Assembly: GCA_964645915.1 (NCBI GenBank)
Contig: CAZYDH010000002.1
Span: 19,465-83,464 of the forward strand
From: an uncultured bacterium
GTDB lineage: Bacteria; Fidelibacterota; Marinisomatia; Marinisomatales; JACNKV01
Direction: 5' to 3'
Length of the DNA: 64,000 bases
Shown: positions 17,398 through 64,000 of the stretch, one piece after another
Position numbering within the stretch: the stretch's first letter is position 1
Layout of the letters: each line of letters starts with the position of its first letter
The notes under the pieces: generated by a model
The model's database searches: none
Told to the model about the DNA's origin: nothing
What the model saw: the letters and a program-made list of their open reading frames with translations, nothing else
Position numbers and translations under genes: made by a program

Positions 17398-17410
17398 GGA
17401 GGCGGATACA

Positions 17411-40591: not shown

Positions 40592-40603
40592 AAATAGTTT
40601 GAC

Positions 40604-41724: not shown

Positions 41725-41962
41725 TTCAATTAAGCACAACAACCGGATAAATGCTATTGCATTTATTGGGTTTAGTGAGTTTAAAGTTTATTTTAGAAAT
41801 CATTACATAAAAGTAATGAGTGATGTAATTATGGAGCAATATCTATTTTAATGAAAGAAAAGGGAAATGAGTTTATCATTGCTGAAACATTCAGTAAAAC
41901 TCTACCGGCTTTTTTCTGTAATTTCTCTATTGATTCATAAGCGTCTCTTTATAAGAAAACAA

Positions 41963-44424: not shown

Positions 44425-44433
44425 AATGCTACG

Positions 44434-45321: not shown

Positions 45322-45341
45322 TAGCAGAGTATTGATTTTAG

Positions 45342-47294: not shown

Positions 47295-50200
47295 TAGGAT
47301 CATCTTTTTCGTTTCTACGAACTCTCCGGTTTTTAACTGATAGAAGTATAATCCTGCACTAACTTGCTTTCCAAAATGATCTCTTCCATTCCATTGAATG
47401 GTATGTCTTCCTACATCAAGATTCGCACTTAACAATCGAATTATTTCTCTTCCCGTGATGTCATAAATAGTCATTTCGGAATGTGATGCGAAAGGTAAAC
47501 TAAATTGAATAGTTGTAATCGGATTAAATGGATTCGGGTAATTCTGTTCAAGAGAAATTCTTGTTGGGATCCCATAATCATCCGTTATAGATAAAATTTC
47601 AAATGTACTGTTTTGCAACCCGGGTGTACCGTAATCAACTGTTGATGCTGACCATGATTCGGGTGCGGAATTTTCCAGTGATGGATTGACCAATTCCAAA
47701 GTTGGACCGTTGCCATCAGGTCCAGATGGCCAAGGGGTATTATCATCATATTGGACGGAGTCAATTAATACACCGTTGGAATCAAAAACTCTGACTTGAT
47801 CTCCGCTACCACTTAGGCCGAAACCAATTGGTCCAACAACATCAACAACATCGGGGAAATGATATGTAAACTGATTTAAATCTTTTGAAATAATGATGTA
47901 TTGATCAGGTAAAACGGTTGTCCCTTCAGGAATATTGAAAGCATGCCCATCGTCGTCATCCTTTACGACCCAATTGGAAATATCAATGGAAGTTTCGCCG
48001 GGGTTGTGTAATTCAATCCAGTCATCCGGATCAAATGCGTTGTTGGAATTGTAATTGATTTCATTGATAACGACTGTCCCGGGTGTCTGTCCGTTTGGTT
48101 CAAATAGTGCAGTTAAATAGAAGGGGTCAGAAATGGAAATATTCATTTCAGCACTGGAATCCGGAAATTCAGCCCAACCAACAAAATCGAATCCATTTTT
48201 TGGTAGTGCCTTAACATAAATTGGGACGGTCGGAAAATAATAACCACTCCAATTAGGTTCAGAAATTTCCAATGAATTAACTTGGACGTTACCTTGCTCA
48301 GGAATTGTTTGAATGTTGATCAATGCGATATTTGGAAGATTAAACTTATCTCGGACGTGTATTCTGGCGTACACTTGTCGATAATTGATAAAGTTATACA
48401 TTGTATTTAAATCATTATCCCAGTTTATGGCAGATCCATCACCCCAACAGCATCCACCTCCCCATGGAATAGCCCAACGTTCTTGATGGTGGGGAATTAG
48501 ATCAATAATTGTGTCTACAATAGAGTCCAAACGTTGGTGTAGATGATTGGCAGATAAAACCGAATTGATCAAGTCACAGTAAAGATTAATGAATCTATGC
48601 TTGAAATGATCATTTTGAAGAATTCTTCTGAATAAATATGTACTCCAAGGGGGATTTGGCCATCCAGGACCATTAGGATCCGATGCAAATTCTAACGTGT
48701 TATATGTGAAAGCATTTTGATCCCAAATACCAAATCCAAAGTCAGTATCAAATAAGATCCAACGCCATTTTCCTTCGGGTTGATGATCACGCCAATATTT
48801 TACATTATTCCCCGGCCAATCACGATTGTCTGAAAATATTTGAATCCCTTGGTATTTTAAATAAGAGTCAAGATCCATCCAATTTTCTAAGGCTATTTCT
48901 ACAGAAGGATCATTTATATTATGTGTTTCAAGATATTCTATAAGATTCAAATAGTCCGTATTTGTTCCATGGATAACGCTGTTATTTCCTTCTAAGAGAT
49001 CCACTTGATCAGGGTCAACTCCATGATTGGATGCTAGATAGTGTTCATTAACTTTTTCTCTAAGATTGAAAATTCCCCAATATTCACCATTTAGATAAAC
49101 AATGCTGGGGCGGTATTGTTGATAATCAACATTCTGCCCATTAGCCAAGCCTGTGATAAAACCATCTCTAAGCATGGATGATATCCAATCATTCCCTGAA
49201 TTTCGGAGGATGAATGCTTCGAAGGTTTCAATGGAATGATCAGGGAAGATAGGATAATCAAATTCAGTGGGTCCATATTGACCACGTGCAAATATTGCCA
49301 TGGATTTTTGAGGATAACCTCTACTCCAAGCGCCAAAAATTTTCACCCCTGCATTCGCATTAAACCCGGTGCCGTCATTTTCTAATATTTCAAAATGGAT
49401 AGGTCGTTCCCAATCCTCCCAAAAGTTTGCACCAAAATGAGGGAAATCCGGACTAGCGTTAGATCCCATTTCGTAAATACCGGTTTCTTCATTGAAAAGA
49501 TGTTCAGAATCTGTCGCAAGGAAAACAACCGGAACAGTTTCGGGGTGAGATTCGTCAAATATATAAGTTTTTGATTGAGTTTTGGATTCATACCAGCCTG
49601 ATAAAAACACTTTTGCTCTAACTACTCTGTTTGAATTGATCGGGATGGGATAGGCATATAATAAAGAACTGGTGGTCGGCTCTGAACCATCTATGGTAAA
49701 ATAGATTTGTGCGTTTGGTATCTCAGAAGTTAGGCTAAGGTATATTGTCTGTCCGTTCGGATAGAACCCTGATGGCTGAGAAAAACCAGGAGGAAGGAGT
49801 GTCCCAATATAGGGTGGAGTATTATTAGAACTATTGGGAGTTGGCTCAGAGAAAATACCCCATGTGTCTCCCTCAAGTAATCTCCCCAAAGAAATATCCC
49901 GATGAATGATACCGGTATAGACAGAATCTATCGTCTCTCCTAACGGAGTTGATAGAATTAGATTTTCACCATTTGAATTGATCTTAAAATTAGTATGTAA
50001 GTAAAATATAGGTAAGTTGATTGATGGATTTGGTTCACGCACATTTGTTTGAATGGTATTATATCCAAAGGTTAAAAAAGGAATACAACTTAGATCAGAT
50101 GAGTAGATATTATAATTATGCACTTCAATTGCTAGTACATTTTCACCTGCAATTAGAGGAACTTCATTTATGTCAAGCCAAATAGATTCCGGGAATCCAC

Positions 50201-50882
50201 CGGAATAAATTTCTGCCTCATGCAATTCAGAAGCAGATTGATTATAGTACACATTAGAACCGGGATAACCTAAATTTCTTCGGGAAATTTCTTGTCCATT
50301 GAGATATGCAACATATCCATCATCATAATCTAAATTAAAAACAGCTTTTTCAACGATACTCGGATCTTCGATATAAATAGATTTTCTTACAAATACCGAA
50401 ATGGTTTGAGGGATGATTGTATTATCATCTGAATCTCCATAGCCAAAACCACTTTGACCATTTGACCAATTGGAATCATCAAAAGATAATTCTTTCCAAT
50501 GAACTGTCGGGTTGGAATTACCGACAAAATATTTCCATTGATCTCCCCAGTCAATTACAGCATCCCATTGACTGATTATGTCTGTACGATTCTTCTCAGA
50601 AGCGAAAACAACAAGAAATTCTTCCGGTTCTATTAAAAGATCAGGGAACGTCCATTTATCTAAGTCTCCTGCATCATCTGTCAATCCATATCCGGAAAGA
50701 TCAAGATTTGATCCTGAAGAATTGTAAAGCTCGATCCAGTCAGGTGTGTCACCATCTTCATCATAAAGTGTGAAGCCATTACTAGACATAACCTCATTGA
50801 TTTGGATTGATTGTCCAATAACAAAAGTGAGAAACAATAGTATGGATAATAATTTTTTCATTATTGTAATTATATACTCCAT
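47286..50882 (-). CDS. Secreted multidomain LTD-CotH-LTD protein with T9SS C-terminal sorting domain
   Basis: 1198 aa with a signal peptide (MKKLLSILLFLTFVIGQS; the start may be 50861). Approximate residue ranges:
- Lamin-tail-like domain, aa 26-98 (INEVMSSN...DWIELYN).
- Beta-sandwich region with FDDSNWSNGQSGFGYG.
- Chitobiase/Fn3-associated-like segment (IYFTIDGSEPT).
- CotH-kinase-like core, aa 450-800, with WRWILFDTDFGFG.
- Second LTD, aa 935-1075 (VINEINYNS...DWIELHN).
- Terminal LEQNYPNPFNPITTIQFSL...YFYQLK T9SS type-A sorting domain. Confidence 0.8.
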   Translation of the reverse strand: MEYIITIMKKLLSILLFLTFVIGQSIQINEVMSSNGFTLYDEDGDTPDWIELYNSSGSNLDLSGYGLTDDAGDLDKWTFPDLLIEPEEFLVVFASEKNRTDIISQWDAVIDWGDQWKYFVGNSNPTVHWKELSFDDSNWSNGQSGFGYGDSDDNTIIPQTISVFVRKSIYIEDPSIVEKAVFNLDYDDGYVAYLNGQEISRRNLGYPGSNVYYNQSASELHEAEIYSGGFPESIWLDINEVPLIAGENVLAIEVHNYNIYSSDLSCIPFLTFGYNTIQTNVREPNPSINLPIFYLHTNFKINSNGENLILSTPLGETIDSVYTGIIHRDISLGRLLEGDTWGIFSEPTPNSSNNTPPYIGTLLPPGFSQPSGFYPNGQTIYLSLTSEIPNAQIYFTIDGSEPTTSSLLYAYPIPINSNRVVRAKVFLSGWYESKTQSKTYIFDESHPETVPVVFLATDSEHLFNEETGIYEMGSNASPDFPHFGANFWEDWERPIHFEILENDGTGFNANAGVKIFGAWSRGYPQKSMAIFARGQYGPTEFDYPIFPDHSIETFEAFILRNSGNDWISSMLRDGFITGLANGQNVDYQQYRPSIVYLNGEYWGIFNLREKVNEHYLASNHGVDPDQVDLLEGNNSVIHGTNTDYLNLIEYLETHNINDPSVEIALENWMDLDSYLKYQGIQIFSDNRDWPGNNVKYWRDHQPEGKWRWILFDTDFGFGIWDQNAFTYNTLEFASDPNGPGWPNPPWSTYLFRRILQNDHFKHRFINLYCDLINSVLSANHLHQRLDSIVDTIIDLIPHHQERWAIPWGGGCCWGDGSAINWDNDLNTMYNFINYRQVYARIHVRDKFNLPNIALINIQTIPEQGNVQVNSLEISEPNWSGYYFPTVPIYVKALPKNGFDFVGWAEFPDSSAEMNISISDPFYLTALFEPNGQTPGTVVINEINYNSNNAFDPDDWIELHNPGETSIDISNWVVKDDDDGHAFNIPEGTTVLPDQYIIISKDLNQFTYHFPDVVDVVGPIGFGLSGSGDQVRVFDSNGVLIDSVQYDDNTPWPSGPDGNGPTLELVNPSLENSAPESWSASTVDYGTPGLQNSTFEILSITDDYGIPTRISLEQNYPNPFNPITTIQFSLPFASHSEMTIYDITGREIIRLLSANLDVGRHTIQWNGRDHFGKQVSAGLYFYQLKTGEFVETKKMILLK

Positions 50883-50888
50883 ATGGAA

Positions 50889-50909
50889 ATTACCGAATAA
50901 ATCGGTAAT
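50889..50909 (-). promoter_or_regulatory. Perfect 8-bp stem, 5-nt loop hairpin between GH3-PA14 and the CotH gene
   Basis: ATTACCGA (50889-50896), ATAAA, TCGGTAAT (50902-50909). No U-tract follows on the transcribed (minus) strand, so this is not a canonical terminator. Function unknown. Confidence 0.3.
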
Positions 50910-50944
50910 ATAAAATTGATGTAGATCATATTTATTAAAAGATT

Positions 50945-53476
50945 TTATATGACAGTAATCATAACTCTTTGTTTGATATCAACAGAAGAACTTCCGATAA
51001 GGATCTCAAATGTCCCTGACTCGACTTCCCAAGAATGACTTTTGGGGTTATAAAATGAAAATGAATCTTTATCTAAAATGAACTGAACTGTTTTATCTTC
51101 ACCTGGTTGTAACTGAACTTTATCAAATGCTTTGAGTTCTTTGATCGGGCGTGGGAGAGAGGACTCATTATCTGAAACATATAATTGAACAATTTCTTCA
51201 CCATATCGATCTCCGATATTTTTCACTTGAACACTTACAAGTACATTATCATCAATTGTATATGTGCTATTATCAGTTTTGATCTTTTCGTATTCGAATT
51301 CGGTATAAGATAAACCAAATCCAAATGGGAAGCGTGGTTTCTCTGGAGATTTATCCCAATGACGGTAACCTAAGAAAATACCTTCTCCATAAAAAACTTG
51401 ATTATCATTATCATGATCGAAGTAATACTCATAAGTTGGATTATCTTCAATATGATGCTCAAATGATATCGGGAGTTTTCCCGAGGGGTTTGTTTCTCCA
51501 AACAGAATTTCAGCTGCAGCAAGATTTCCTTCCTGACCGGGATACCAAGCCATTAATAGCGCATTAACGTTATCGATCCAACTTTCCATCTCTACATTTC
51601 CGCCTGCGTTCAAGACTACAATAATATTGTCATTTACCTCTGAAATAGAATTGATCAGATTGCTTTGGTCATATGGCATCTCAAATGTACGATCAAATGC
51701 TTCACCTTCCAAAGATGCGTTAAATCCAACCGCCATGATCACTAGGTCAGAGTTTTTTGCTGCTTCAATTGCTCGTGATGGATATTGATCCGGAAGAATG
51801 TCCATTACGGTCTTTTTAACCCCTAATCTAAGTCGTGCATCTCCACCGGCTTGATAATACTCAATGACAACTTTATATTCCTGACCGGCATTTAAAAAAC
51901 ATTCATATTTTGCCCTAGTATCTCCTTGATCTCTCCATAACTCTAACACATTGGTATCATCAATGAGGAGTCGATATCCATCATCCCCGGAGACACCGAT
52001 ACAATAATGTCCGGTTTCATTGGGTGTATAATAACAAGTGAACCGTGCAGAAAAATCAGTTTCCGGAACATCAGGTTTATTCCACATGTCTTCATTGACT
52101 AGAGCCAGTTTACTGTAAAATCCGGAGTAAATACTCTCTCCGGACAATGTTTTTCCTTTGAAAAAGTCCACGTTTACTCCTTTAAGTTGTTTACCATCAT
52201 CATAGACATAAAAATCGAAATCATTAAATATTCCTTCAGGAAATTCCACTCCGGTGAAAATTCCTTTTTCAAAAATAATGTCCAATTTATTGTCGGTAGT
52301 TTGCTTAATAGCATCGACCAATGATAATGGATATCTTGGTTCAACAGTTGAACTTCCTCCTCCACCGGTAACTGCAGGATGTCCATTTGGTCCGATAATT
52401 GCGATCGAATTGATATTATCTGCTTGAAGGGGAAGTATTTGATCTCTGTTTTTAAGGAGAACCATACCACCTCGTGCAGCCGCTAAAGAAGTTTGTCTGG
52501 CAAATTCATGATCAAACGAATATCCTTTGCTGCGATCTGGATTTTCAAACAATCCAAATCGGTGATAAACAGATAGAATTCGACGGACTTTATCATCAAG
52601 TATTGATTCATCCAATTGACCTGCCTTAATTGCAGGAATCAATGTTTCAGGACTCATCATCTTTCCGGAAGGCATTTCAAGATCAAGTCCACCATTATAG
52701 CATGCTACACCATTATAAGTTGAAACCCAGTCAGAGACAACAAAACCTTCAAATCCCCAATCCTCTTTAAGAATATTATTAACTAAATAATCATGCTCTG
52801 AAGCATGGATACCGTTAATCAGGTTATAACTTGTCATTACAGAAGCAACACTTCCTTCTTGTACAACTGTTTTAAATGCAGGAAGATATATTTCATGCAA
52901 TGTTCTTTCATCCATATCTGAAGAACAGTGATGCCGATTGAATTCTTGATTATTTGCCACATAATGTTTTGCTGTGGCGATCATTTTTTCACTTTGCATT
53001 CCAATCGTATACTCTTTTGCTAGTTGTCCGGCAAGAAAAGGATCTTCACCAAGATATTCAAAATTTCGACCACATAAAGGTAATCGATAGATATTAAACC
53101 CCGGTCCAAGCATAACATGAATATTTTTTGAACGGGCTTCACCGCCGATTGCTTTACCAATATTAAAAGCCAGTTCCTTATCCCATGAAGCAGCAAGATT
53201 GATAGATGCCGGGAAAGCCGTTGCTTTCCCAAAATTTCGAATTCCAACAGGACCGTCTGCCAAATAAGCTTCGGGGATTCCTAAATGTTTATACCCTCTA
53301 ATATTATATCCTTTATATCCTCCGATAAAGTCAATTTTTTCTTCCAACGTCATTTTGGAGATCAATTCATCAACATCTATGTCATTTTGATTATGGATAT
53401 GAATATTGTTTGAGCATCCACTGATGAGAATTAATAGAACAATAAAGAGTAATTGGATATATTTTTTTTGAATCAT
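50945..53476 (-). CDS. Glycoside hydrolase family 3 beta-glucosidase with inserted PA14 domain, predicted lipoprotein
   Basis: Lipobox LILISGCS. GH3 N-terminal barrel with nucleophile motif GFVVSDW. PA14-like insert (FSARFTCYYTPNETGHYCIGVSGDDGYRLLIDD...YYQAGGDARLRLG). C-terminal Fn3-like domain. Confidence 0.88.
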   Translation of the reverse strand: MIQKKYIQLLFIVLLILISGCSNNIHIHNQNDIDVDELISKMTLEEKIDFIGGYKGYNIRGYKHLGIPEAYLADGPVGIRNFGKATAFPASINLAASWDKELAFNIGKAIGGEARSKNIHVMLGPGFNIYRLPLCGRNFEYLGEDPFLAGQLAKEYTIGMQSEKMIATAKHYVANNQEFNRHHCSSDMDERTLHEIYLPAFKTVVQEGSVASVMTSYNLINGIHASEHDYLVNNILKEDWGFEGFVVSDWVSTYNGVACYNGGLDLEMPSGKMMSPETLIPAIKAGQLDESILDDKVRRILSVYHRFGLFENPDRSKGYSFDHEFARQTSLAAARGGMVLLKNRDQILPLQADNINSIAIIGPNGHPAVTGGGGSSTVEPRYPLSLVDAIKQTTDNKLDIIFEKGIFTGVEFPEGIFNDFDFYVYDDGKQLKGVNVDFFKGKTLSGESIYSGFYSKLALVNEDMWNKPDVPETDFSARFTCYYTPNETGHYCIGVSGDDGYRLLIDDTNVLELWRDQGDTRAKYECFLNAGQEYKVVIEYYQAGGDARLRLGVKKTVMDILPDQYPSRAIEAAKNSDLVIMAVGFNASLEGEAFDRTFEMPYDQSNLINSISEVNDNIIVVLNAGGNVEMESWIDNVNALLMAWYPGQEGNLAAAEILFGETNPSGKLPISFEHHIEDNPTYEYYFDHDNDNQVFYGEGIFLGYRHWDKSPEKPRFPFGFGLSYTEFEYEKIKTDNSTYTIDDNVLVSVQVKNIGDRYGEEIVQLYVSDNESSLPRPIKELKAFDKVQLQPGEDKTVQFILDKDSFSFYNPKSHSWEVESGTFEILIGSSSVDIKQRVMITVI

Positions 53477-53483
53477 AATGGTG

Positions 53484-54857
53484 CTATTTGTTATTGTCGT
53501 TTAGTGGAGGTAAAAGTAGATCTTTAAATAATGAATCTTTGTTTCCATCATATGTTTTTACGATTGGATTTTCACCTCTATGAATGTTATTAAATGTTCC
53601 GTTATCTACTAACTCCCATAAGGCATATTTTGCTTTTCCCTCAACGGTGAAAAGTCCAAAATGTGATTCACTTCCTTTTTCTCCACCTTTCCAAGGCTCA
53701 TTGAATGCTTCAAAATAAAAACAGCTTATATTGTTTTGAAAAGTCCACTTTGAGATTGAATCATAATAGAGTTTCATTTTGATTTCATCCGTCGCTCCTG
53801 AGCCGGGAGTTGTATAGATGTCATCGTCTACCGTTGCCCATCCTGTCTCTCCAATATGGATTGGTTTTACGCAATTTATTTCCTGTAGATAATTTTTTAC
53901 CAAATTATATTGATTAACTGCACTTGCAAACGCAGCCTTCAGGCGGGATTGGACAATTTCTTCAGTGGTCTTTTTCTGGTCTTTTTCTGTCAATTGCCAA
54001 AATCCGGGATTCCAATGAGTATCATGAAAAGGATATGTATGAAGTGAAATAAAATCGATTGCATGCAATAGTTCAATTAAAGAATCTTTTCTGTATTGAT
54101 CTTCAGCACCCCAAACTGCAAAATTATCTGAAGAAGTGATCAATACATCTTGTGGAAGTAAGTAACCGTTTACCGGAGCGATTTTTGCCTTTTGTGCATA
54201 GTTAACGTATTTCAAGATAATTTCAGATGATACCCAATGTGCTTGCCAGGTCACCATTGCTTCATTCCCGACTGCAATAATTTTTACGATATCAGGATAC
54301 TTAGAAGCCAATTCGATTGCATAATCCATTTCGGCTATATTTGTTTCAATGTCCTCTTTAGTGTGGTCTACACTATCGGTATATGATCCTGCACACTGTA
54401 TCCATGCACCCAGCATTACATACATTTCAAAATCCGGGTCATCCTGTTTCAATTGATGGATAGCTTCTAAAAGACGTGTGGCATGTAGATATTGCTGAGT
54501 GTCATAAGTCCGTAATAGTTTAATCCCCATTGCAGCCATGATTTTCATATCTTCTTTTAACTCAGCGGTGGATGGACAATAATCATTTTTATCAGGAAGA
54601 TTATCTCCGCGGGTTGGTTTTCGATATCCGGAAAATGATATAGCAGGATATTGTTTGTTTCCTAATAACAAATCTCCGTTATCAAGGGAATAATTGTTTC
54701 TCACTGAAGTTTGAATTTCATTGACCCATTGATCACCCAAGTAATGGTTATCAATGATTTTGGACGAAACATCTATTTGTGGGTATAGAATATTTCCTAC
54801 AAGAACAACCGTCATACTCAATAATGTGAAGTGAAATCGGTTAGAAATAAGCTTCAT
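53484..54857 (-). CDS. Glycoside hydrolase family 17-like (beta-1,3-glucan hydrolase/transglycosylase)
   Basis: N-terminal hydrophobic leader. Clan GH-A barrel with acid/base motif AVGNEAM and nucleophile motif IGETGWAT, the GH17 signature pair (GNE ... ETGW). Confidence 0.7.
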   Translation of the reverse strand: MKLISNRFHFTLLSMTVVLVGNILYPQIDVSSKIIDNHYLGDQWVNEIQTSVRNNYSLDNGDLLLGNKQYPAISFSGYRKPTRGDNLPDKNDYCPSTAELKEDMKIMAAMGIKLLRTYDTQQYLHATRLLEAIHQLKQDDPDFEMYVMLGAWIQCAGSYTDSVDHTKEDIETNIAEMDYAIELASKYPDIVKIIAVGNEAMVTWQAHWVSSEIILKYVNYAQKAKIAPVNGYLLPQDVLITSSDNFAVWGAEDQYRKDSLIELLHAIDFISLHTYPFHDTHWNPGFWQLTEKDQKKTTEEIVQSRLKAAFASAVNQYNLVKNYLQEINCVKPIHIGETGWATVDDDIYTTPGSGATDEIKMKLYYDSISKWTFQNNISCFYFEAFNEPWKGGEKGSESHFGLFTVEGKAKYALWELVDNGTFNNIHRGENPIVKTYDGNKDSLFKDLLLPPLNDNNK

Positions 54858-54869
54858 AGTGATTCTCCT

Positions 54870-57800
54870 TTAAGTTAGAAGAGTATGAGAAATTGAAACG
54901 TTAATTTGTTTAATTTTATTAGCCCTCTGAAAAATAGACGTTGAAATATCTTGGTTGAGTTCGAGCCCACCAATGGTTTCAAGTTCATTGTTAGAGTAAG
55001 TAATTGTTATTTGATTGTTATCAGAGATAGTATAAACAATTGGTGTTTGTACAAATGTGAAAGCCAAATTGTTTTTATGAAGTGATATTGTATTTTTCTC
55101 CCCTGAAATATTGTAGTAAGAAAACTCATTCTCATCTATGAGAAATTCTGATTTTCTAATCAGGTTTGGTTTGAAAATTATATGCCCTTCGTCAACGGTA
55201 ACCCCTAATTCCCCAAACCTGGTAATATAATCTTCTTTTACTTGACCGGTCATCCCGGGTTGTTGGACACCACAATGTTCAGGAGTATGCGAATAGGGGT
55301 CGGTAGGGAAGGCCCCATACAGAGCCGGGTTTTTATGGACACCAATTCCATTTTTAATTTCGTAGTATATGGACTTTAGTTCAGTTAAGGTCTCGGAATC
55401 AGCATTTTCAGATAAAGCGGTATAATAGATTTCATTAACAGCTAAAAGAAGTTTTGAAACCATATGCCAATATATACTTCCTAATCCTTCATATTTAAAG
55501 AACGTTCCTGATCGACCAGTGAATGATTGGTGATCGAATATTTTCTCATAAATATTCAATACATCTAAGATATCCTCTTGAGAAAACCGATTTAATTCTA
55601 CTAATTTATCTTTTAACAGTCTTGAATTACTAAACTGATTGTTGAAATGGATGTTTCCTTCAATATCTACTTCGATAATATCAGTGCTCTGCTCTTGAAT
55701 AAGTTGTTTTAATACGGTTGAGGTATTTGCTAATTCATTCGGAATAATGTTTTTCTCGGTGAAATGTGGTAGTCGCCGGTTTGGATACAGAATATAACTT
55801 TGTTGATCTTCTCTGTATAATGAGCTTGAACGTAGAACTTTTAATAAATCTAAAGCTTTTTTTGTATCTAAATATCTTGAGCTGAGAACAGATACTTGAC
55901 CTTCTAGCATTTCATATAAATGCCTGATCTTAATTCCATTATTTGAATCAAATTGAATCAAATTATATGCATTGTATAAATGGTCTTCCCGTTCATTTAT
56001 TTGAATGGAGTGATCAATGTGCTCCATCCCAATTTCTAGAAATGATAATAGACTTTGAATAGGTAGCGGACTTTTCTTCCCTGAGAATCCATCTGAGTAT
56101 ATACGAGCACGGTGATTTGAACCTGCGGTAGATAAAATATCGGTGATCTTCTTGCGGTCTTGGTCTGATAAGGGTTTAGATAGATAGCTGTGTGTGTTGT
56201 GCAATCCTTCAAATATATGTTGGAATAACTTGATGACCTCATCAGAGATAGAAATTTCACTAATATTTACTTCTTTTAATAAATCTTGTAGGAATGTAGT
56301 ATATCGCCTAAGGTAATATAAAGTAACCATCGATGTCCCATTTCCGACCAATGCATTATTAGCATCATTCCATTCGGGACGTTGAGTATTCATCCAAATC
56401 CCTGCTTCAGGAATAAAATTAGAGAATTTCACTAACATTGGGATTAGGAGTTTTTCAAGCATCGAAACGTGATATAATTCCCCATTTGGGTCATGATGGA
56501 ATTTTCCATCGGTGCCTATCTTTTCTACTCTATCTAAAAGGAGTTTGTTTAGATCAAAGTCAAAATCAACCGTAATGTGATGATCTTTTTGTATTTCAGA
56601 ATATGGTTTAATTTTATAAGGTACATTAGCATAGGAATAGATATTTTTTTCTAAAAGACTGAGTAGCCTTCCCGGGTGATATTTATGTGATATCTCTAAT
56701 AATTTTAGAAGATAAATAATTTGGTGATCTCCCCAGTAACCAATATAGGTCCACGCATCATCCGGATTCAATACTTCCCAATCAAAACCATCACGAACTA
56801 CTCGATATGGGTTATAACCATCAGCAGTAGAAGCATTTAAGAATTTGGTGATCATTCCTTCTATATATTCAGGGAAGGAAATAGCTAGTGCTTCCCAATT
56901 TTGAAAGATATCTCGCCAATTCCCTTGATAGTTTAGCGTTTTTACACCTTGTTCATCTTTTAACTCTATCGAAAAGTTATTCCATGGACGGCTAGGATCT
57001 CCATGCCTTCTGCTAAAACTGAGGGGTAGATACTCAAAATAAAGTCTTTCAAGATCTGGATGATCTATTTTTTTTATCTCCGATATATGAAAATAATCAG
57101 GTAAATGTTCCAACAATGAGTTAAACTGAGATTGTTTAGGCTTATTAGCTTGGTAAATGTATCCTAGAAAATCTTCTTTGCTGATCATATAATTATCATC
57201 AAAGATTCCCCCACGCATAATATTAAATAGTGTGTTTGAGCAATGCCGAAAATTGTTTAGTGTATCGCGAGTTAATTGAATTCCATCTGCCTTGGCAATT
57301 TTCTTGAATAAATTTTTATAGCTTTCTTGAATTGATTGCTGAAGTTTAAAGTTCAAGTCCTTGTCATTAATGATTTTATGCGATAATAATGCTACCTGAG
57401 ATTGGTTTTTATTAATATCAGTTACAAAATTCCATTCTCTTGTTTGGTGCTGGTTCAAAACAAATTCAGTATGGATAAAATAAGCACCGCGACGTGCTCT
57501 AATATTGTTTTCGGGGTTAACCTTCATTGTTTTTCGGAAGGTATCTAACTGTTCTGACGATAATAAAATGGTGGGATCTTGTAATCCAAATGACCAAACA
57601 GTTGTAGCCGTTAATGACTCACTGGGCTCTGCTCGATCAACTGGAATAGAGCTTAACATAAAAAGTCCTAAATTGGAGTCTGGTATCAACTCATTTTTTT
57701 TATATCCGTCAATTAACGTACTATATTCTAATTGGAATTTTCTATCTACTCCTGAAGGAAGAATATTCTGAATCCCATCACACATATTAATTGTGATTTC

Positions 57801-58313
57801 CTCTGAACTGTTATTAATAATTCGTGATCTTTTAACAAATCCAAACTCATCACAATTATACCAGCTATACTGAAAAGTCACATTAAGATCGTGGTTGATC
57901 TCTTCAAAAAGGATATGATTCCCTAAAATATTCTTATACAGATTTCTTTCTAAAGAATATAACCCTTCATACTTATGTGAAAATGGTTCCCATAAAAATG
58001 TTTTATCAGACGTGTGAATAAATACAATAGTTTTACTACCTGTGATTTCAGAGGAATCATGAATTCGGTCATCGGTATAATACGGGAATATGGCATTGTC
58101 AGGGTTTTTTCTACCAGCAGATAAAGCTCCGTTGCTAGAGAGAAACATCCATAGATCAGAATCACTAACGATGCTCATAAAAAAAGGAGGGATTAGATCA
58201 TAATTCGAAATTTGATAATATGGCTTACCATCCAAAGTGACGACTTCACCATGAATATCCTCATTTGAATGTTTAAACTTTGCATTCCCTATATAAATAG
58301 TGTTTTGATTCAT
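54870..58313 (-). CDS. Large cytoplasmic glycoside-phosphorylase-like protein (candidate GH94/GH149/GH161-class beta-glucan phosphorylase)
   Basis: 1147 aa with no signal peptide or TM segment. It is embedded between GH genes with 12-13 nt gaps. The RPEWNDANN motif (aa 645-653, nt 56355-56381) resembles the xDWND catalytic-Asp motif of GH94-type phosphorylases as I recall it. Size matches the roughly 1100-aa beta-1,3- and beta-1,2-oligoglucan phosphorylases. Family not verified. Confidence 0.45.
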   Translation of the reverse strand: MNQNTIYIGNAKFKHSNEDIHGEVVTLDGKPYYQISNYDLIPPFFMSIVSDSDLWMFLSSNGALSAGRKNPDNAIFPYYTDDRIHDSSEITGSKTIVFIHTSDKTFLWEPFSHKYEGLYSLERNLYKNILGNHILFEEINHDLNVTFQYSWYNCDEFGFVKRSRIINNSSEEITINMCDGIQNILPSGVDRKFQLEYSTLIDGYKKNELIPDSNLGLFMLSSIPVDRAEPSESLTATTVWSFGLQDPTILLSSEQLDTFRKTMKVNPENNIRARRGAYFIHTEFVLNQHQTREWNFVTDINKNQSQVALLSHKIINDKDLNFKLQQSIQESYKNLFKKIAKADGIQLTRDTLNNFRHCSNTLFNIMRGGIFDDNYMISKEDFLGYIYQANKPKQSQFNSLLEHLPDYFHISEIKKIDHPDLERLYFEYLPLSFSRRHGDPSRPWNNFSIELKDEQGVKTLNYQGNWRDIFQNWEALAISFPEYIEGMITKFLNASTADGYNPYRVVRDGFDWEVLNPDDAWTYIGYWGDHQIIYLLKLLEISHKYHPGRLLSLLEKNIYSYANVPYKIKPYSEIQKDHHITVDFDFDLNKLLLDRVEKIGTDGKFHHDPNGELYHVSMLEKLLIPMLVKFSNFIPEAGIWMNTQRPEWNDANNALVGNGTSMVTLYYLRRYTTFLQDLLKEVNISEISISDEVIKLFQHIFEGLHNTHSYLSKPLSDQDRKKITDILSTAGSNHRARIYSDGFSGKKSPLPIQSLLSFLEIGMEHIDHSIQINEREDHLYNAYNLIQFDSNNGIKIRHLYEMLEGQVSVLSSRYLDTKKALDLLKVLRSSSLYREDQQSYILYPNRRLPHFTEKNIIPNELANTSTVLKQLIQEQSTDIIEVDIEGNIHFNNQFSNSRLLKDKLVELNRFSQEDILDVLNIYEKIFDHQSFTGRSGTFFKYEGLGSIYWHMVSKLLLAVNEIYYTALSENADSETLTELKSIYYEIKNGIGVHKNPALYGAFPTDPYSHTPEHCGVQQPGMTGQVKEDYITRFGELGVTVDEGHIIFKPNLIRKSEFLIDENEFSYYNISGEKNTISLHKNNLAFTFVQTPIVYTISDNNQITITYSNNELETIGGLELNQDISTSIFQRANKIKQINVSISHTLLT

Positions 58314-58326
58314 AAGACTACTCGTT

Positions 58327-59592
58327 TCATTTCACTGTGAAGGGGATATTGGCATGACCGCCATTTCCACTTTCATCAAATACAAAGACGAACAAACGAT
58401 AATGCCCGGATTCTTTAGGGGTGTTAAAAACCAATGAATCTTTCGTTTGATTTATAACAGCATATTCTGCGATGGGAGGTTTCTTTTCCTCATCTCCACC
58501 ATCCTTTTTATCAATGGCTTCATGTAAGATTTCCCACAAAACAGATACTGTGCTTCCTTCAGGATCGTTTGCCCAAACAACCGCTTTATGAGCAGATTCA
58601 GGAGAGAAGGTAAGGTTTGAATAGGCGCTTTTGTTATCGATTCGAAGTGAATCCAAAATCGGAGATCTATCATTAGGCCATTGATTATTCCACACATAAT
58701 GCAATACGTCTACAGATTGAGTTTTTGCTCCATCTGATAGAAACAAACTGTACCAGGTTGATGTCCTCTCTTGTTTATTCCCCCAGAAAAAAACATATCC
58801 GCCCAAGCAGTTTGAATGAGGGAGAATGTCTTCTCTATATTCCTTTTCGTATAACTCGGCTTTTTCTTTACTAGTAAACTCAATTGGTTCACCCCAACTT
58901 GTTTTTGCAACTTCCCAATGACCAAATGGTCCCCATTCTCCCAGGATATAAGGTTTTGTCCAGCCGAAGTCTTCCAACCAATCATTGACAACGGGTATTC
59001 CCGCATAGGCATTCACACCTAGAATATCAATACTGGGACATTGTTTTTGTATGAGTTCTGCTTCTCGTCTTTCAATAAAGGCAGTTGTGGTCATCGTAGG
59101 ATGGTTGCCATCAACTTCATGTATATACCGAGCAAATTCTTCGACTGCATTCCAAACAGTGGTATCTGTATAAAAAGAATTTAATTCATTTCCAATTCCC
59201 CACATCAATAAGTTAGGATGATCTTTATATTTTAGGATGTAGGGTTTATATTTTTCAAATTGTTGTTTAACAGCGTCAGGATCACTATAATCAAATCCTT
59301 GTCGTTCCTGAACAAGCCAAATTCCGGCACAGACATAAAAGTTGTATTTCTCCGCCATTTCGAAGATTTCGTTCCACTTATCTACACCCCAAGTCCGTAT
59401 AGAGTTAGCTCCACTCGCGGCTAATATATCATAATGGTCATCAATTCCTGCACCTATAATGTAAAAGGGTTCTCCATTAACTTGTAATTGATACCCTGTA
59501 TCTGTTTTTAATATTTTTACCGAGGATCCATCCTTGGAATAACCGGGGACCGTAAGAAAAATCGATAGAAGTAAAATAATCGAGTTTTTCAT
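58327..59592 (-). CDS. Secreted clan GH-A glycoside hydrolase with C-terminal beta-sandwich (GH158-like or GH2/GH5-like; candidate endo-beta-1,3-glucanase)
   Basis: Signal peptide. TIM-barrel motifs MWGIGNELN (acid/base NE) and ILGEWGPF (candidate nucleophile E). A C-terminal Ig-like region of about 110 aa. The architecture and size (421 aa) fit the GH158 description. The family call is tentative. Confidence 0.5.
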   Translation of the reverse strand: MKNSIILLLSIFLTVPGYSKDGSSVKILKTDTGYQLQVNGEPFYIIGAGIDDHYDILAASGANSIRTWGVDKWNEIFEMAEKYNFYVCAGIWLVQERQGFDYSDPDAVKQQFEKYKPYILKYKDHPNLLMWGIGNELNSFYTDTTVWNAVEEFARYIHEVDGNHPTMTTTAFIERREAELIQKQCPSIDILGVNAYAGIPVVNDWLEDFGWTKPYILGEWGPFGHWEVAKTSWGEPIEFTSKEKAELYEKEYREDILPHSNCLGGYVFFWGNKQERTSTWYSLFLSDGAKTQSVDVLHYVWNNQWPNDRSPILDSLRIDNKSAYSNLTFSPESAHKAVVWANDPEGSTVSVLWEILHEAIDKKDGGDEEKKPPIAEYAVINQTKDSLVFNTPKESGHYRLFVFVFDESGNGGHANIPFTVK

Positions 59593-59607
59593 GGTCTTTG
59601 TATTAGT

Positions 59608-61854
59608 TTACCTAATTACCTCAAACTTAGCGAACAGTCCACTATCAGAATCCGGAGCTATCCACACATGAAATGTACCGGGTTCGGTTACCAATTTCAT
59701 TTCTGGATTATAAAAAGCCAGATCGCTAGTGTTTAAAGTGAATTGAACAGTTTGTGATTCTCCTGGTTGAAGTTGAATCCTTTTGAATCTTCTTAACTCT
59801 TTTACAGGTGGGGTAATACTGGCAACTAAATCACGAGTATATAACTGAACTACCTCTTCAGCTTTAACATGTCCATCGTTTCTAATAACTGCTGAAATTG
59901 TAATATCTTTACCCATTTGCACAATAGAGTCCGAAAGTGTGGGATTGGAATAACTGAAATTCGTATAGGAAAGTCCGTACCCAAAAGGAAATTGCGGTTT
60001 ATATCCGGCATCTAAATAGTGAGATTCATTCCCAAGAGACGTTTGCCACATGCGAACCGGAATATCATCTATATGAACATAAGTATCCTCGTTAGGAGGT
60101 CTGCCCGTATTTTTATGATTATAATACATGGGTATTTGTCCTACAACTTTAGGGAAAGTAACAGGAAGTTTACCCGAAGGGCATTCTTTACCAAAAAGTA
60201 GATCAACAATTGCCGGTCCACCCATAGTTCCTGGATGGAAGGAGAAGAGGACAGCATCAACTTTATCAAGAATGTTTCCCATGGTTAATGGTCTGCCTGC
60301 CATCACGATGAGGACAATAGGTTTGCCTGTTTGATGTAATTGTAAGATCAGCTCTTCTTGTGCTCCGGGAAGATTTATATTAGCTCTACAATGTGCTTCT
60401 CCGGTAATAATGGCTTCTTCTCCAGCAAAAAATAAAATCACATCAGATTTTTCAGCTGCTGATATTGCTTCTTTGAAATAAGTATCTTCAGTGGATCGGG
60501 AAATTTCTAATCCTTTGGAATAATGAATGTTCAAATCACTGCTATAGATATCATTGAGCGCATCCATTGGAGTTTTGGAATCCTCAATATTTTGATCAAA
60601 AGACCAAGTCCCAAGCTGTTCATAAGGATCGTCAGCAAATGGTCCGATTACTGCGATGTCTTTAATGTTTTTAGAAAGGGGTAATATGTTCTGATCATTT
60701 TTTAACATCACGATACTTTGTATAGCGGATTCTTTTGCCATACTCAAATAATCTTCATTAACCATTTTTGGGAATTGATCAGTATCTACAAAAGGATTTT
60801 CAAATAACCCCAATTCGAACTTTAATCGTAATATATTCCGGACAGCCTCATCAATAAGTTTGATGTCAACTTCTCCTGAATTTACAAGCTCTTGTAAATA
60901 ATCTTCATAATCTGTTGAAGCCATCTCCATGTCTACTCCAGCGGTCAATGCTTTTTGAGCAGTAGCTTTTTCATCTGCACAGTATCCGTGCGCAATCATT
61001 TCATGGATAGATGCCCAGTCACTGACCACAACTCCATTCCAATCCCATTCCTGACGTAAAATGTCTCTTAATAAAAATGAGTTTCCTGTGGAGGGAATTC
61101 CATTTACATCATGAAATCCAGCCATTAATGTTTTTACTCCGACTTCTGCGCTAGCCTGGAAAGGTTTTAAATAGACCTCTCTAAGAAGTTGTTCGGGAAT
61201 GTAAGCTGTATTATAATCTCTTCCGCCTTCACCACCTCCATATCCGACATAATGTTTAGCGCAGGCGGCAATAGATTCGGGATTTGACGGATCATCTGAT
61301 TGAAATCCTTTTATCATAGCCACCGCCATTTGACTGGTTAAGTAGTGATCTTCACCAAAGGATTCAGCGATTCTACCCCATCTTGGATCTCTTGAAATAT
61401 CCATCATGGGTCCAAATGTCCACTTAATTCCAACTGAAGCTGCTTCAGAAGCTGCAACTCGTGCTCCTTGCTCGACTAAGTCAGTATTCCAAGTTGCTGC
61501 AAGTCCGATTGGAATTGGGAAAATTGTGCGAAATCCATGAATTACATCCCGTGCAATAAGTAAGGGAATACCATGCGGGCTTTCTTCAACAGCGAGTTTT
61601 TGAAGAGTTTTTATTTTTTCTGGATCGGTTACATTCAAGATGGATCCAATTTTTCCTGCTTTTACACCTTCATAGTTCCAATCAGCTCCACTCCGCTGAC
61701 ACATTTGACCGATTTTATCTTGAAGTGACATTTCTTTAAGTAAGCGATCAATTTTTACTTCCATATCATTGACTTCGTTAGACATGTTAAACCCGATTGT
61801 ATGAATTAAAAATAGTATCGGATAAATGAGTTTAAATTTCATTGAGAACCTCAT
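59608..61854 (-). CDS. Glycoside hydrolase family 3 beta-glucosidase (BglX-like), periplasmic
   Basis: Signal peptide, the KIGQM N-terminal motif, nucleophile motif GVVVSDW, a C-terminal alpha/beta sandwich and an Fn3-like domain. The start may be the internal ATG at 61842. Confidence 0.9.
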   Translation of the reverse strand: MRFSMKFKLIYPILFLIHTIGFNMSNEVNDMEVKIDRLLKEMSLQDKIGQMCQRSGADWNYEGVKAGKIGSILNVTDPEKIKTLQKLAVEESPHGIPLLIARDVIHGFRTIFPIPIGLAATWNTDLVEQGARVAASEAASVGIKWTFGPMMDISRDPRWGRIAESFGEDHYLTSQMAVAMIKGFQSDDPSNPESIAACAKHYVGYGGGEGGRDYNTAYIPEQLLREVYLKPFQASAEVGVKTLMAGFHDVNGIPSTGNSFLLRDILRQEWDWNGVVVSDWASIHEMIAHGYCADEKATAQKALTAGVDMEMASTDYEDYLQELVNSGEVDIKLIDEAVRNILRLKFELGLFENPFVDTDQFPKMVNEDYLSMAKESAIQSIVMLKNDQNILPLSKNIKDIAVIGPFADDPYEQLGTWSFDQNIEDSKTPMDALNDIYSSDLNIHYSKGLEISRSTEDTYFKEAISAAEKSDVILFFAGEEAIITGEAHCRANINLPGAQEELILQLHQTGKPIVLIVMAGRPLTMGNILDKVDAVLFSFHPGTMGGPAIVDLLFGKECPSGKLPVTFPKVVGQIPMYYNHKNTGRPPNEDTYVHIDDIPVRMWQTSLGNESHYLDAGYKPQFPFGYGLSYTNFSYSNPTLSDSIVQMGKDITISAVIRNDGHVKAEEVVQLYTRDLVASITPPVKELRRFKRIQLQPGESQTVQFTLNTSDLAFYNPEMKLVTEPGTFHVWIAPDSDSGLFAKFEVIR

Positions 61855-61869
61855 GAATTTATAAATGTT

Positions 61870-63294
61870 TTACTCAACGTATTCTTTACGAGTAGCTAAC
61901 TCTGCACGGTTTTCAGCAGCTTTTTGTTCATCAATATCGTAAGAGTTCATTACCCACATCGCGATAAGAGTTCCTAGAATTGGTAACCCGGAATAGAAAA
62001 TTCGCATTCCGGTTATTGCACTCTCTGGATTGTTAGGTCCCTGTTCAAATCCTACAAGCGACATAATTACCCCGCTAAGCAAACCTGCAATAGCTAATCC
62101 GAATTTTACCATCCACCAATAAATTGCACCCAAAACACCTTCGCGACGCTTACCGGTGTTGATTTCATCTAAATCGCAAACATCGGCAGTCATAGACATC
62201 ATTAGCGTAAATAGACCCCCTATACCAAATGAGAAAAATGGAAGAGCTATAAGAAACATATAAGGTTTTCCAGGAATAAATAAGAACCAAAATAATATAT
62301 AACCGATAATGGAAATACCTTGTGAAAGAAGAAAGGTCTTTTTCTTGCCAAATATTTTGGAAACTTTTGCAACAATTGGAATAACTACAAATGTTGTAAC
62401 AAGAGCCCCCACACATCCATGAAGTGTTGGCCAAATACCGGCGGCGCTTGCATCTCCATTAAACAAATAGTATACAATAATGAAAAAGGAAAATGCTGCA
62501 ACAGTATTAAAAGCGTTAAAAACCAAGAAAGTCGCAATACACAGTTTTCGAAACGGTTTATTTTGGAATGCTATCTTAAATCCTTTGAAGATATCGACTG
62601 CGCTGTTACCGATATTACCTCTGGTAAGCGGCATCAATGAATCATCATTTAAAGTAGATTTACTTTTAACGAACACTGCGGGCACCATGGCAAGTAGCAT
62701 ACAGATCACCCCGATCCAAATGGCAACTTCTCTACTGCCAGCATCGGCACTTTCAAACCAGTTAGGATCGTAGAGTATTACCCAGAACCATGGAGCAATT
62801 ACCCAAGCCCATTGCCCAATCCACTGAGCTACGGCCATTATGCTCGTTCGCTCATGAAAATCGTTACTCATCTCATAGCCCATAGCTACATAAGGCACAC
62901 TAAAGATGGTTAAGCCAAGATAAAATACAAATGAGAATAATAGAAAATATATAAAGTTGTAACTCACTCCGTTTTCAGGATATAATTGCCACATTAAACT
63001 AAATGAAGCACCCATTATCAATGCCCCAAGAAAAACCCACTGTCTGCGTCTTCCCCATTTTGAACGGGTATTGTCTGAAATAAATCCCATGATAGGATCG
63101 GTAATGGCATCAAACACTCTAGGAAGAAAGAAAATGATTCCCCAAAGTAATGGTGGGAATCCCAGATCTTGAACTAACACTACCATTAAGATTCCTAACG
63201 CAGCTGGGAACATTTGGTTTGCTAGCATTCCTAAACCAAATGCTAATTTCTGTCCGAAGGCAACTTTATCCTGAGTTTCTATCGCGTGTGACAT
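61870..63294 (-). CDS. Glycoside-pentoside-hexuronide (GPH):cation symporter family MFS transporter
   Basis: 474 aa with about 12 TM segments. The signature DAITDPIMGFISDNTRSKWGRRRQW matches the GPH D..DP..G...D.T....GR.RPW motif. Confidence 0.88.
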   Translation of the reverse strand: MSHAIETQDKVAFGQKLAFGLGMLANQMFPAALGILMVVLVQDLGFPPLLWGIIFFLPRVFDAITDPIMGFISDNTRSKWGRRRQWVFLGALIMGASFSLMWQLYPENGVSYNFIYFLLFSFVFYLGLTIFSVPYVAMGYEMSNDFHERTSIMAVAQWIGQWAWVIAPWFWVILYDPNWFESADAGSREVAIWIGVICMLLAMVPAVFVKSKSTLNDDSLMPLTRGNIGNSAVDIFKGFKIAFQNKPFRKLCIATFLVFNAFNTVAAFSFFIIVYYLFNGDASAAGIWPTLHGCVGALVTTFVVIPIVAKVSKIFGKKKTFLLSQGISIIGYILFWFLFIPGKPYMFLIALPFFSFGIGGLFTLMMSMTADVCDLDEINTGKRREGVLGAIYWWMVKFGLAIAGLLSGVIMSLVGFEQGPNNPESAITGMRIFYSGLPILGTLIAMWVMNSYDIDEQKAAENRAELATRKEYVE

Positions 63295-63352
63295 AATTTT
63301 ATTCTATTAGTACTTTGTTTTGTAAGAATGGTTTGATTTAATTAGGAAAATC

Positions 63353-64000
63353 TTATTGGCCGGGTTTTGTGCTGGAGCGAATACTTAATGAAACAGGAAC
63401 TAAATTGATATGCCCGTGACTATCGTTTTCCCCTTGATATTTCTTTTCCAATAAACGTATTGAAGCTTTGCCAAGTTCGTAGAAATTTGTATTAACTGAT
63501 GTCAATTCTGGATTATAAATTTTACAAAATGGAAGATCATCATATCCGGCTAAGGCAAAATCTTTAGGGATATTTCTTCCATCCTGTATGGCTTTTTTAA
63601 TAAATCCAAAACACATTTGATCGTTAGAGCCAAATATAGCAATATTGGACAAACCTTGGTCTTTAATGTCTTTATAGGCATGATATCCGGAACCAATTGA
63701 GTAATCGCCCTTAAATCTCCAGACATTATTTAATTTTTTTGAAACAGATACATAGTCTAGAAATCCATTTTTTCTATAGAGAGCTTCCACTTTATTTGAA
63801 GGTCCGGTAATAATTCCAACGTTAGTATATCCTAATTCTTCAAAGTGTTTTGCAACCATATATCCACCACGATAGGCGTCAAATGTGACCGTGTCAATTA
63901 CCGGATTTACAATGGGCGCAAGAGAGATAATGGGATAGTCACCTATAGCTTTTTTGATCTTTTTATAATCTTTCACACCAAATTCGGGCAGGAAGAGACA
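63353..64000 (-). CDS. LacI-family transcriptional regulator (C-terminal sugar-binding domain; N-terminal HTH lies beyond the window)
   Basis: Periplasmic-binding-protein-like fold with ALAGYDDLP and PELTSV motifs typical of LacI/GalR effector domains. The reading frame stays open to nt 64000, so the gene is truncated by the window edge. Confidence 0.8.
   Translation of the reverse strand, partial: CLFLPEFGVKDYKKIKKAIGDYPIISLAPIVNPVIDTVTFDAYRGGYMVAKHFEELGYTNVGIITGPSNKVEALYRKNGFLDYVSVSKKLNNVWRFKGDYSIGSGYHAYKDIKDQGLSNIAIFGSNDQMCFGFIKKAIQDGRNIPKDFALAGYDDLPFCKIYNPELTSVNTNFYELGKASIRLLEKKYQGENDSHGHINLVPVSLSIRSSTKPGQ

Follow-up and report, generated by a model that had tools for sequence, protein, structure and literature searches.

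The gene at 54870..58313 of the window (the whole stretch of 64,000 nucleotides analysed here) very probably encodes a cytoplasmic GH149 beta-1,3-glucan phosphorylase of the laminaridextrin phosphorylase type which, judging from its sequence, would carry out the intracellular step of a laminarin-utilisation cluster. The open reading frame runs from an ATG to a TAA codon and specifies 1147 amino acids. As the first-pass annotation had described, 13 nt separate the end of the upstream gene (58327..59592) from its ATG, and 12 nt lie between its stop and the start of the downstream gene (53484..54857). The strand, which is the minus strand, had been left unstated there. The gene and the sites predicted within it are the following.

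54870..58313, minus strand: GH149 beta-1,3-glucan (laminari-oligosaccharide) phosphorylase gene, 1147 aa, predicted cytoplasmic (NF058639 and PDB 6HQ6 match)
56910..56915, minus strand: R467-D468 codons, RD motif predicted to recognise the sugar-1-phosphate, equivalent to Pro_7066 R470/D471 (residue mapping; PMC6771811)
56343..56381, minus strand: catalytic-loop motif RPEWNDANNALVG (aa 645-657), with the WND motif described in PMC6771811
56364..56366, minus strand: D650 codon, predicted catalytic (general acid) Asp, equivalent to Pro_7066 D653 (residue mapping)
55464..55466, minus strand: H950 codon, predicted phosphate-recognition His, equivalent to Pro_7066 H959 (residue mapping; PMC6771811)

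The NCBIfam equivalog profile NF058639.1 (GH149_beta_1_3, "1,3-beta-D-glucan phosphorylase") matched the protein with E=0 and 1650.6 bits, compared with a curated cut-off of 1150, and the alignment was end to end (protein residues 17-1141 on positions 2-1133 of the 1134 in the profile). Among PDB chains, Pro_7066 (6HQ6/6HQ8), which is a beta-1,3-glucan phosphorylase in vitro (PMC5827456), was matched with E=0 and 1191 bits (query residues 8-1142, chain residues 27-1170). The two proteins belong to the same length class, are collinear from residue 8 to the C-terminus and share 48.7% identity; their alignment spans 1133 columns, of which no more than 13 are gap columns. All four domains of Pro_7066 (beta-sandwich, helical linker, (alpha/alpha)6 and jelly roll) are collinear with the query at the sequence level. 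Identity reaches 58% in the (alpha/alpha)6 catalytic core and 46% in the N-terminal beta-sandwich, and falls to 21-36% in the linker, in the inserts Dom1 and Dom2 and in the C-terminal jelly roll. Dom1 and Dom2 (Pro_7066 residues 370-428 and 852-938), which flank the catalytic domain, are GH149-specific inserts absent from GH94; both could be aligned here with small indels only, at 36% and 32% identity, respectively. By these alignments the 1147-aa protein belongs to GH149 as a complete and ordinary member.

The first-pass annotation had recognised no classical GH motif in the protein, which is true in that a Pfam-A scan matched no family, GH94 models included. Since the NCBIfam and PDB matches run full length, the blank indicates a missing model and not divergence. 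Pfam-A has no GH149 model, so Pfam-only tools leave the protein unannotated; a search of NCBIfam or the PDB gives its identity immediately. The same annotation had guessed at a phosphorylase, and the guess was right, the protein being a clan GH-Q glycoside phosphorylase.

Three sequences came out of the PDB search (E<=10): the GH149 chain, a chain named GH161 and 9H8V, which is named only 'Cellobiose phosphorylase' and matched over short stretches with 45 bits. Membership in GH161 was rejected, as 9QQK and 9H8V aligned over only three short local stretches (E~1e-11 to 3e-11, 45 bits), compared with E=0 and 1191 bits for GH149. There is a likeness to GH161 (PDB 9QQK/9SR2) at the active site, where the query W-N-D aligns with W-Y-D of the GH161 chain and the block containing the RD motif is aligned too. 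Membership in GH94 was rejected because no Pfam-A family was matched and, besides the GH149 and GH161 chains, the PDB search gave only 9H8V, at 45 bits in short stretches. The tie of the protein to GH94 is at the clan level only, GH94 and GH149 both belonging to clan GH-Q (PMC6771811). The GH149-specific inserts in the query set it apart from GH161 and GH94 alike.

The residues with predicted roles in catalysis are all conserved. The motif RPEWNDANNALVG is found with the same letters in Pro_7066, and R470, D471, W651, N652, D653 and H959 of that enzyme correspond to identical residues R467, D468, W648, N649, D650 and H950 in the query, so that the loop, the RD motif and the phosphate His are shared. 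These six positions are invariant in 82/82 GH149 sequences. The WND catalytic loop is common to GH149 and GH94, and D653 is the predicted catalytic Asp in Pro_7066 (PMC6771811). D650, the Asp of an EWND block that had previously been likened to the GH94 catalytic block, aligns with D653 within this loop, and the comparison holds.

The N-terminus of the phosphorylase, MNQNTIYIGNAKFKHSNEDIHGEV, is hydrophilic, and Kyte-Doolittle means over 19 residues peak at 1.26, under the usual threshold of ~1.6. No signal peptide or TM segment, N-terminal or internal, was apparent in this hydropathy check; the protein had already been described as leaderless and devoid of TM segments, and Pro_7066 likewise has no targeting peptide. 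The choice of the ATG start is supported by homology, because query residue 8 pairs with Pro_7066 residue 8 (chain residue 27, with a tag offset of 19). Each of the five flanking enzymes and secreted proteins is hydrophobic at its N-terminus, unlike the phosphorylase, and the contrast between a predicted cytoplasmic phosphorylase and exported neighbours is, on these sequences, genuine. The genes that surround it are listed here.

63353..64000, minus strand: LacI-family regulator (profile matches), cut by the window end; 331 aa when complete on an identical metagenome contig
61870..63294, minus strand: GPH-family MFS sugar:cation symporter, 474 aa (Pfam MFS_2, 3.2e-70)
59608..61854, minus strand: GH3 beta-glucosidase, BglX-like, 748 aa, hydrophobic N-terminus (Pfam GH3 N, C and Fn3-like)
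58327..59592, minus strand: GH158 family protein, 421 aa, hydrophobic N-terminus, probable endo-beta-1,3-glucanase (PDB 9ORO)
53484..54857, minus strand: GH17 endo-beta-1,3-glucanase homologue, 457 aa, hydrophobic N-terminus (PDB 6FCG)
50945..53476, minus strand: GH3 with an inserted PA14 domain, 843 aa, lipoprotein-like N-terminus (…LISGC) (Pfam/NCBIfam profiles)
47286..50882, minus strand: secreted CotH-like/LTD/CHB_HEX_C protein, 1198 aa, T9SS sorting tail (Pfam)

The upstream gene, formerly annotated as 'GH-A', encodes a TIM-barrel enzyme of the clan GH-A type that is more exactly placed in GH158 by its matches to 9ORO ('Glycoside hydrolase family 158', E=3.6e-90) and 6PAL (E=6.8e-72), its Pfam match being a weak one to the GH2 TIM barrel only. 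The downstream gene was correctly called GH17: its product matched FbGH17A (6FCG) with E=1.6e-120, and the Pfam GH17 score, 24 bits, was under the cut-off. FbGH17A is a characterised laminarinase (PMC6246565). With GH158 and GH17 as neighbours, the earlier placement of the phosphorylase in a beta-glucan cluster is sound. The BglX-like protein scored 686.7 bits with NF011678 (cut-off 666). The symporter, with 194.8 bits for TIGR00792 (under the cut-off of 231), is a candidate inner-membrane importer of laminari-oligosaccharides. Membership of the last co-directional gene, 47286..50882, in the functional unit is uncertain; a 41% homologue of its product is located downstream in another GH149 locus, L001.

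The gaps between the co-directional genes are 7-62 nt. A sigma-70 promoter scan of 46500-64000 found 63 sites compared with 68.0±8.6 in shuffled sequences, and an intrinsic-terminator scan of the same region found 13 compared with 10.6±3.4. Neither was better than the shuffles, and we therefore infer co-transcription of the cluster, and its operon structure, purely from gene spacing and orientation.

The following pathway can be proposed. Exported GH158 and GH17 endo-beta-1,3-glucanases, together with the GH3 beta-glucosidases, would cleave laminarin-type beta-1,3(1,6)-glucan outside the cytoplasm, and the short laminari-oligosaccharides would enter through the GPH/MFS symporter, whose substrate is predicted from this context. 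The GH149 enzyme would then use Pi to release glucose from the non-reducing end, with inversion, as alpha-D-glucose-1-phosphate. In this presumed activity D650 in the WND loop would serve as the general acid, R467 and D468 would hold the sugar-1-phosphate and H950 would aid phosphate binding. The glucose-1-phosphate could reach glycolysis via phosphoglucomutase without ATP cost; no phosphoglucomutase gene was found within the window. The LacI-type repressor probably governs the cluster.

The location of the gene amid exported glucanases, beta-glucosidases, a sugar importer and a LacI-type regulator is classic for a catabolic locus and recurs in many lineages, and cytoplasmic Pi normally favours phosphorolysis. 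These considerations make it highly improbable that the enzyme serves mainly for synthesis in vivo, turning glucose-1-phosphate into a beta-1,3-glucan store inside the cell instead of breaking down imported oligosaccharides, even though the GH149 reaction is reversible and oligomers to ~DP 11 are readily made in vitro (PMC5827456).

The catabolic reading agrees with what was found at other loci. GH149 genes are known in laminarin PULs and in CAZyme clusters devoid of susCD, with GH3, GH16, GH17, GH30 and MFS genes (PMC5827456, PMC6246565, PMC13188888). Among 80 GH149 loci, GH17 was found within 10 kb in 59, an MFS homologue in 62 and GH158 in 13; GH17 is directly downstream of GH149 in most loci compared, and the order GH158-GH149-GH17 is matched in L001. 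As in the marine laminarin loci of Formosa sp. Hel1_33_131 (L028 in our set), Polaribacter and Muricauda, GH149 is linked here to GH17, GH3 and an MFS gene of the pfam13347 type (PMC6246565, PMC13188888, PMC5827456). Unlike those PULs and clusters, the present one has no SusC/SusD pair (none in the window nor within 10 kb past it on the identical contig L081), carries GH158 instead of GH16/GH30, includes a LacI-type regulator and has the extra secreted CotH/LTD/T9SS protein at its end. The MFS and GH17 proteins are encoded by separate genes, whereas they are fused in FbGH17B.

The first-pass annotation had considered the protein possibly divergent, only distantly related to known phosphorylases, and perhaps a new subfamily or specificity. 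The score far above the NF058639 cut-off and the full-length match to Pro_7066 speak against these ideas, and identities to other GH149 members, 48-57%, are central to the family (median 52.5%, minimum 44.4, 82 sequences). In a NJ tree the protein nests beside L001, and the small clade around it holds MAGs whose lineages are unclassified or lie outside Bacteroidota (Neomarinimicrobiota, Melioribacteraceae). The closest relative among the matches listed (species-representative genomes) is a Candidatus Neomarinimicrobiota MAG with 57% identity and the same gene order, and the source lineage, unlike that of Pro_7066, is probably not Flavobacteriia. Identity distribution and tree placement being typical of GH149, a new subfamily was rejected; the protein represents no new class of enzyme and no new mechanism.

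The surface oligosaccharide-binding site of Pro_7066, a trait of its close relatives and not of GH149 at large, is kept only in part. Three of its eight residues are swapped non-conservatively (Y841 to Q838, the stacking Tyr, E982 to S973 and E990 to S981), K831 is replaced by R, and E838, Y993, E994 and R1062 are kept as E835, Y984, E985 and R1053. The Gln at the Y841 position is unique among the 82 GH149 sequences. These changes, the small clade and the 48.7% identity to Pro_7066 could suggest a GH149-fold phosphorylase of a specificity unlike that of Pro_7066 or EgP1, such as a strict chain length, tolerance of beta-1,6 branches or another beta-linked sugar, and hence a functionally new subgroup. 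EgP1 and Pro_7066, themselves 45% identical, differ kinetically (PMC5827456). At 48.7% identity, chain-length preference is not transferable to the query from Pro_7066, the only bacterial member with kinetics. We nevertheless regard a new specificity as improbable: the score is far over an equivalog-level cut-off, donor-site and catalytic residues are invariant, the identity level is no outlier, and the adjacent genes encode beta-1,3-glucan enzymes, as they do at characterised laminarin loci. Besides, the surface site is variable across the 82 sequences and was already reported to be poorly conserved among lower-identity GH149 members (PMC6771811).

There is a slim chance that the locus represents a SusC/SusD-independent, T9SS-associated laminarin pathway of an uncultured Marinimicrobia-like (FCB-group) lineage, in which the Y841-to-Gln site and the linked secreted CotH/LTD protein would reflect a substrate range or capture (e.g., chain length or branching) distinct from flavobacterial systems. 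A search of the literature on Marinimicrobia and laminarin brought up no work dealing specifically with GH149 in this phylum. A laminarin cluster of this makeup is already a known type.

Laminarin is a major marine carbon pool. GH149 phosphorylases provide an ATP-saving intracellular step in its use and are useful biocatalysts for beta-1,3-glucan synthesis. The present protein adds one further sequence to the family, apparently from a Neomarinimicrobiota-related lineage and not from the well-studied Flavobacteriia; the occurrence in such lineages of a complete laminarin cluster devoid of susCD may have some modest ecological interest. An identical protein is encoded on at least 24 public metagenome or MAG contigs (ENA, JGI, NCBI, Logan).

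The 1147-aa protein encoded at 54870..58313 had been described in the first-pass annotation as possibly a divergent beta-glucan phosphorylase, and the phosphorylase part of that guess was right. In NCBIfam, the equivalog model NF058639.1 ('GH149_beta_1_3, 1,3-beta-D-glucan phosphorylase, GH149 family') covers residues 17-1141 on profile positions 2-1133 of 1134, with a score of 1650.6 bits where the curated cut-off is 1150. When all PDB chains were searched, the best match was 6HQ6/6HQ8, 'bacterial beta-1,3-oligosaccharide phosphorylase' (E=0, 1191 bits; query 8-1142, chain 27-1170). 6HQ6 is the GH149 enzyme Pro_7066, whose structure has been described (PMC6771811). The protein has no family matches in Pfam-A, and for this reason no "classical" GH motif is recognisable in it. 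The remaining PDB matches, at about 3e-11, were confined to three short stretches and came from 9QQK, a GH161 phosphorylase, and 9H8V, named only 'Cellobiose phosphorylase'. Membership of GH94 or GH161 was ruled out by the lack of a Pfam match and the shortness and weakness of the match to the GH161 chain. Judged by its sequence, the protein is a bona fide, typical GH149 enzyme with predicted beta-1,3-glucan phosphorylase activity.

The ORF listing shows an ATG-initiated reading frame of 1147 codons on the minus strand; translation of 54870..58313 gives many stops on the plus strand and is open on the minus strand. Its upstream neighbour (58327..59592, minus) stops 13 nt before the GH149 start and the following one (53484..54857, minus) starts 12 nt past its stop, so the position and spacing annotated before were accurate, with the strand being minus. 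The GC content is 33.7% in the gene and 37.5% in the whole window. The N-terminus, MNQNTIYIGNAKFKHSNEDIHGEV..., is hydrophilic, and the maximum 19-residue Kyte-Doolittle mean is only 1.26; therefore, there is no apparent signal peptide or membrane helix, and hydropathy bears out the earlier view of a leaderless protein. In contrast, both GH3 proteins and the GH158, GH17 and CotH-like proteins of the same cluster have hydrophobic, leader-like N-termini. The identical 1147-aa sequence is already deposited in public collections (NCBI, JGI/IMG, ENA, Logan), where at least 24 contigs carry it in an unchanged gene order; the longest contig in the cluster listing measures 175 kb, and the longest of four contigs displayed in full measures 122 kb.

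In Pro_7066 the WND loop consists of W651, N652 and the predicted catalytic D653, the RD motif (R470, D471) takes part in sugar-1-phosphate recognition, and H959 takes part in phosphate recognition (PMC6771811). Once numbering is corrected for the 19-residue tag on the PDB chain, these residues map to W648/N649/D650, R467/D468 and H950 of the GH149 protein, and all are identical. They are also invariant in 82/82 sequences of a MAFFT alignment containing the GH149 protein, Pro_7066 and 80 homologues listed from species-representative genomes. Therefore, D650 is the predicted catalytic Asp, as had been proposed. It is the Asp of EWND within RPEWNDANNALVG (residues 645-657), located exactly at nt 56343-56381 as reported, and the likeness of this stretch to the GH94 'WND' block was correct at the level of clan GH-Q.

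The GH149 protein and Pro_7066 share 48.7% identity over 1133 aligned columns; the alignment has just 13 gap columns. Domain-wise identity, obtained from HMMER alignment rows re-joined by script, is 58% in the (alpha/alpha)6 catalytic core, 46% in the N-terminal beta-sandwich, 36% and 32% in the GH149-specific inserts Dom1 and Dom2, 31% in the C-terminal jelly roll and 21% in the helical linker. Pro_7066 also has a remote surface oligosaccharide-binding site, which is only partly retained here: E835, Y984, E985 and R1053 are kept and K831 is replaced by Arg, but the stacking Tyr Y841 corresponds to Q838, and E982 and E990 are both replaced by Ser. Q838 (codon 55800-55802, minus) is the sole Gln at its position in the 82-sequence alignment. 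Poor conservation of the surface site had already been noted for GH149 members less identical to Pro_7066 (PMC6771811). The altered surface site and the moderate identity are all that speaks for a shifted specificity inside the GH149 fold, which we consider very unlikely.

The supposed divergence from known phosphorylases did not hold. The protein is 48-57% identical to the 81 other aligned sequences, and pairwise identity across the set has a median of 52.5% (minimum 44.4%, maximum 91.4%). Nothing above 57% was present among the genome-collection matches listed. In a neighbor-joining tree the protein pairs with that of locus L001, from a Candidatus Neomarinimicrobiota MAG (57.3%); next out are those of an uncultured Melioribacteraceae MAG (L003) and an unclassified MAG (L002), and the four sit inside a larger non-flavobacterial clade. 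Its divergence, as read from these sequences, is ordinary within-family diversity.

The GH149 gene is one of eight minus-strand genes running from 63976 down to 47286, separated by gaps of 7-62 nt.

Genes of the laminarin cluster, in order along the minus strand
1, minus: LacI-family regulator, truncated at the window end (331 aa when complete, on identical contigs)
2, minus: GPH/MFS_2 symporter
3, minus: BglX-like GH3
4, 58327-59592, minus: GH158 family protein, 421 aa (PDB 9ORO, 3.6e-90; 6PAL, 6.8e-72)
5, 54870..58313, minus: GH149
6, 53484..54857, minus: GH17 (PDB 6FCG, 1.6e-120)
7, minus: GH3 with PA14 insert
8, 47286-50882, minus: CotH/lamin-tail/CHB_HEX_C protein, 1198 aa, T9SS sorting tail

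Gene 4, formerly labelled 'GH-A', thus encodes a GH158 member; like GH149, this family is without a Pfam model, and the protein gave only a weak Pfam match, to a GH2-type TIM barrel. 6FCG is FbGH17A, a characterised endo-beta-1,3-glucanase from a Formosa laminarin PUL (PMC6246565). The last co-directional gene encodes a secreted protein with CotH kinase-like, two lamin-tail and chitobiase/hexosaminidase C-terminal domains. Several cluster proteins bear T9SS or lipoprotein-like signals. Beyond the LacI gene, identical contigs (L081, 1-5000) carry a divergent SSF sodium:solute symporter gene and a gene for a CBM9 protein of 1186 aa with a T9SS tail. Neither the window nor the adjoining 10 kb of L081 past the LacI gene contains a SusC/SusD pair. 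Promoter and terminator scans of 46500-64000 performed no better than shuffles.

From what is known of these families, laminarin would be broken down by exported enzymes, with GH158 and GH17 acting as endo-glucanases and the GH3 proteins as exo-glucosidases, and short beta-1,3-oligosaccharides would be taken up via the MFS symporter. Cytoplasmic GH149, with D650 as the putative general acid, would then release alpha-glucose-1-phosphate from the non-reducing end by phosphorolysis, leaving a shortened chain, and the product could enter glycolysis without ATP cost. A biosynthetic role in vivo is at odds with the catabolic gene neighbourhood and appears extremely improbable.

Gene linkage was counted as homologues of the window's neighbours within 10 kb flanks of 80 listed GH149 loci. 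GH17 accompanies GH149 in 59/80, mostly directly downstream, an MFS transporter in 62/80, GH158 in 13 and a CotH-like homologue in only two. L001 has the order of the window, GH158 (60%), GH149 (57%), GH17 (67%), with a CotH-like homologue (41%) further downstream. In the founding GH149 paper, the bacterial genes were placed both in PULs and in 'CAZyme clusters' lacking susCD, alongside GH3/GH30, GH16/GH17 and pfam13347 MFS transporters (PMC5827456); Formosa, Polaribacter and Muricauda were later shown to have the same arrangement (PMC6246565, PMC13188888). The GH149 protein is an uncharacterised addition to a known family, and the laminarin cluster around it is likewise of a known type. Four cluster genes are sister to those of a Neomarinimicrobiota MAG; together with the T9SS sorting domains, this points to a probable host from the FCB group that is Marinimicrobia-like. 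What novelty remains concerns this probable host and a cluster architecture that is susCD-less and T9SS-linked, rather than the enzyme.

Elsewhere, no tRNA or tmRNA genes were found across the 64-kb window. The region 2881-19718 (plus) holds a complex-I-type operon with nuoA, B, C, D, H, I, J, then L, M and N, space for nuoK and no nuoE/F/G genes, directly followed by a complete Na+-translocating NQR operon (nqrA-F) and apbE. Two ORFs without a significant Pfam family flank a CcsA-like cytochrome c assembly gene: one of 168 aa (30207-30713, plus), between the ResB-like and CcsA-like genes, and one of 354 aa (32072-33136, plus), with only a sub-threshold Gp_dh_C match. A menaquinone-biosynthesis run (38976-47294, plus) includes 4HBT thioesterase, isochorismate-synthase-like, MenD-like, MenB-like and UbiA/MenA-like genes and an apparent 650-aa MenC-MenE fusion (MenC_N + MR_MLE_C + AMP-binding); there is a 9-nt overlap between the 3′ end of the fusion gene and the convergent CotH-like gene.
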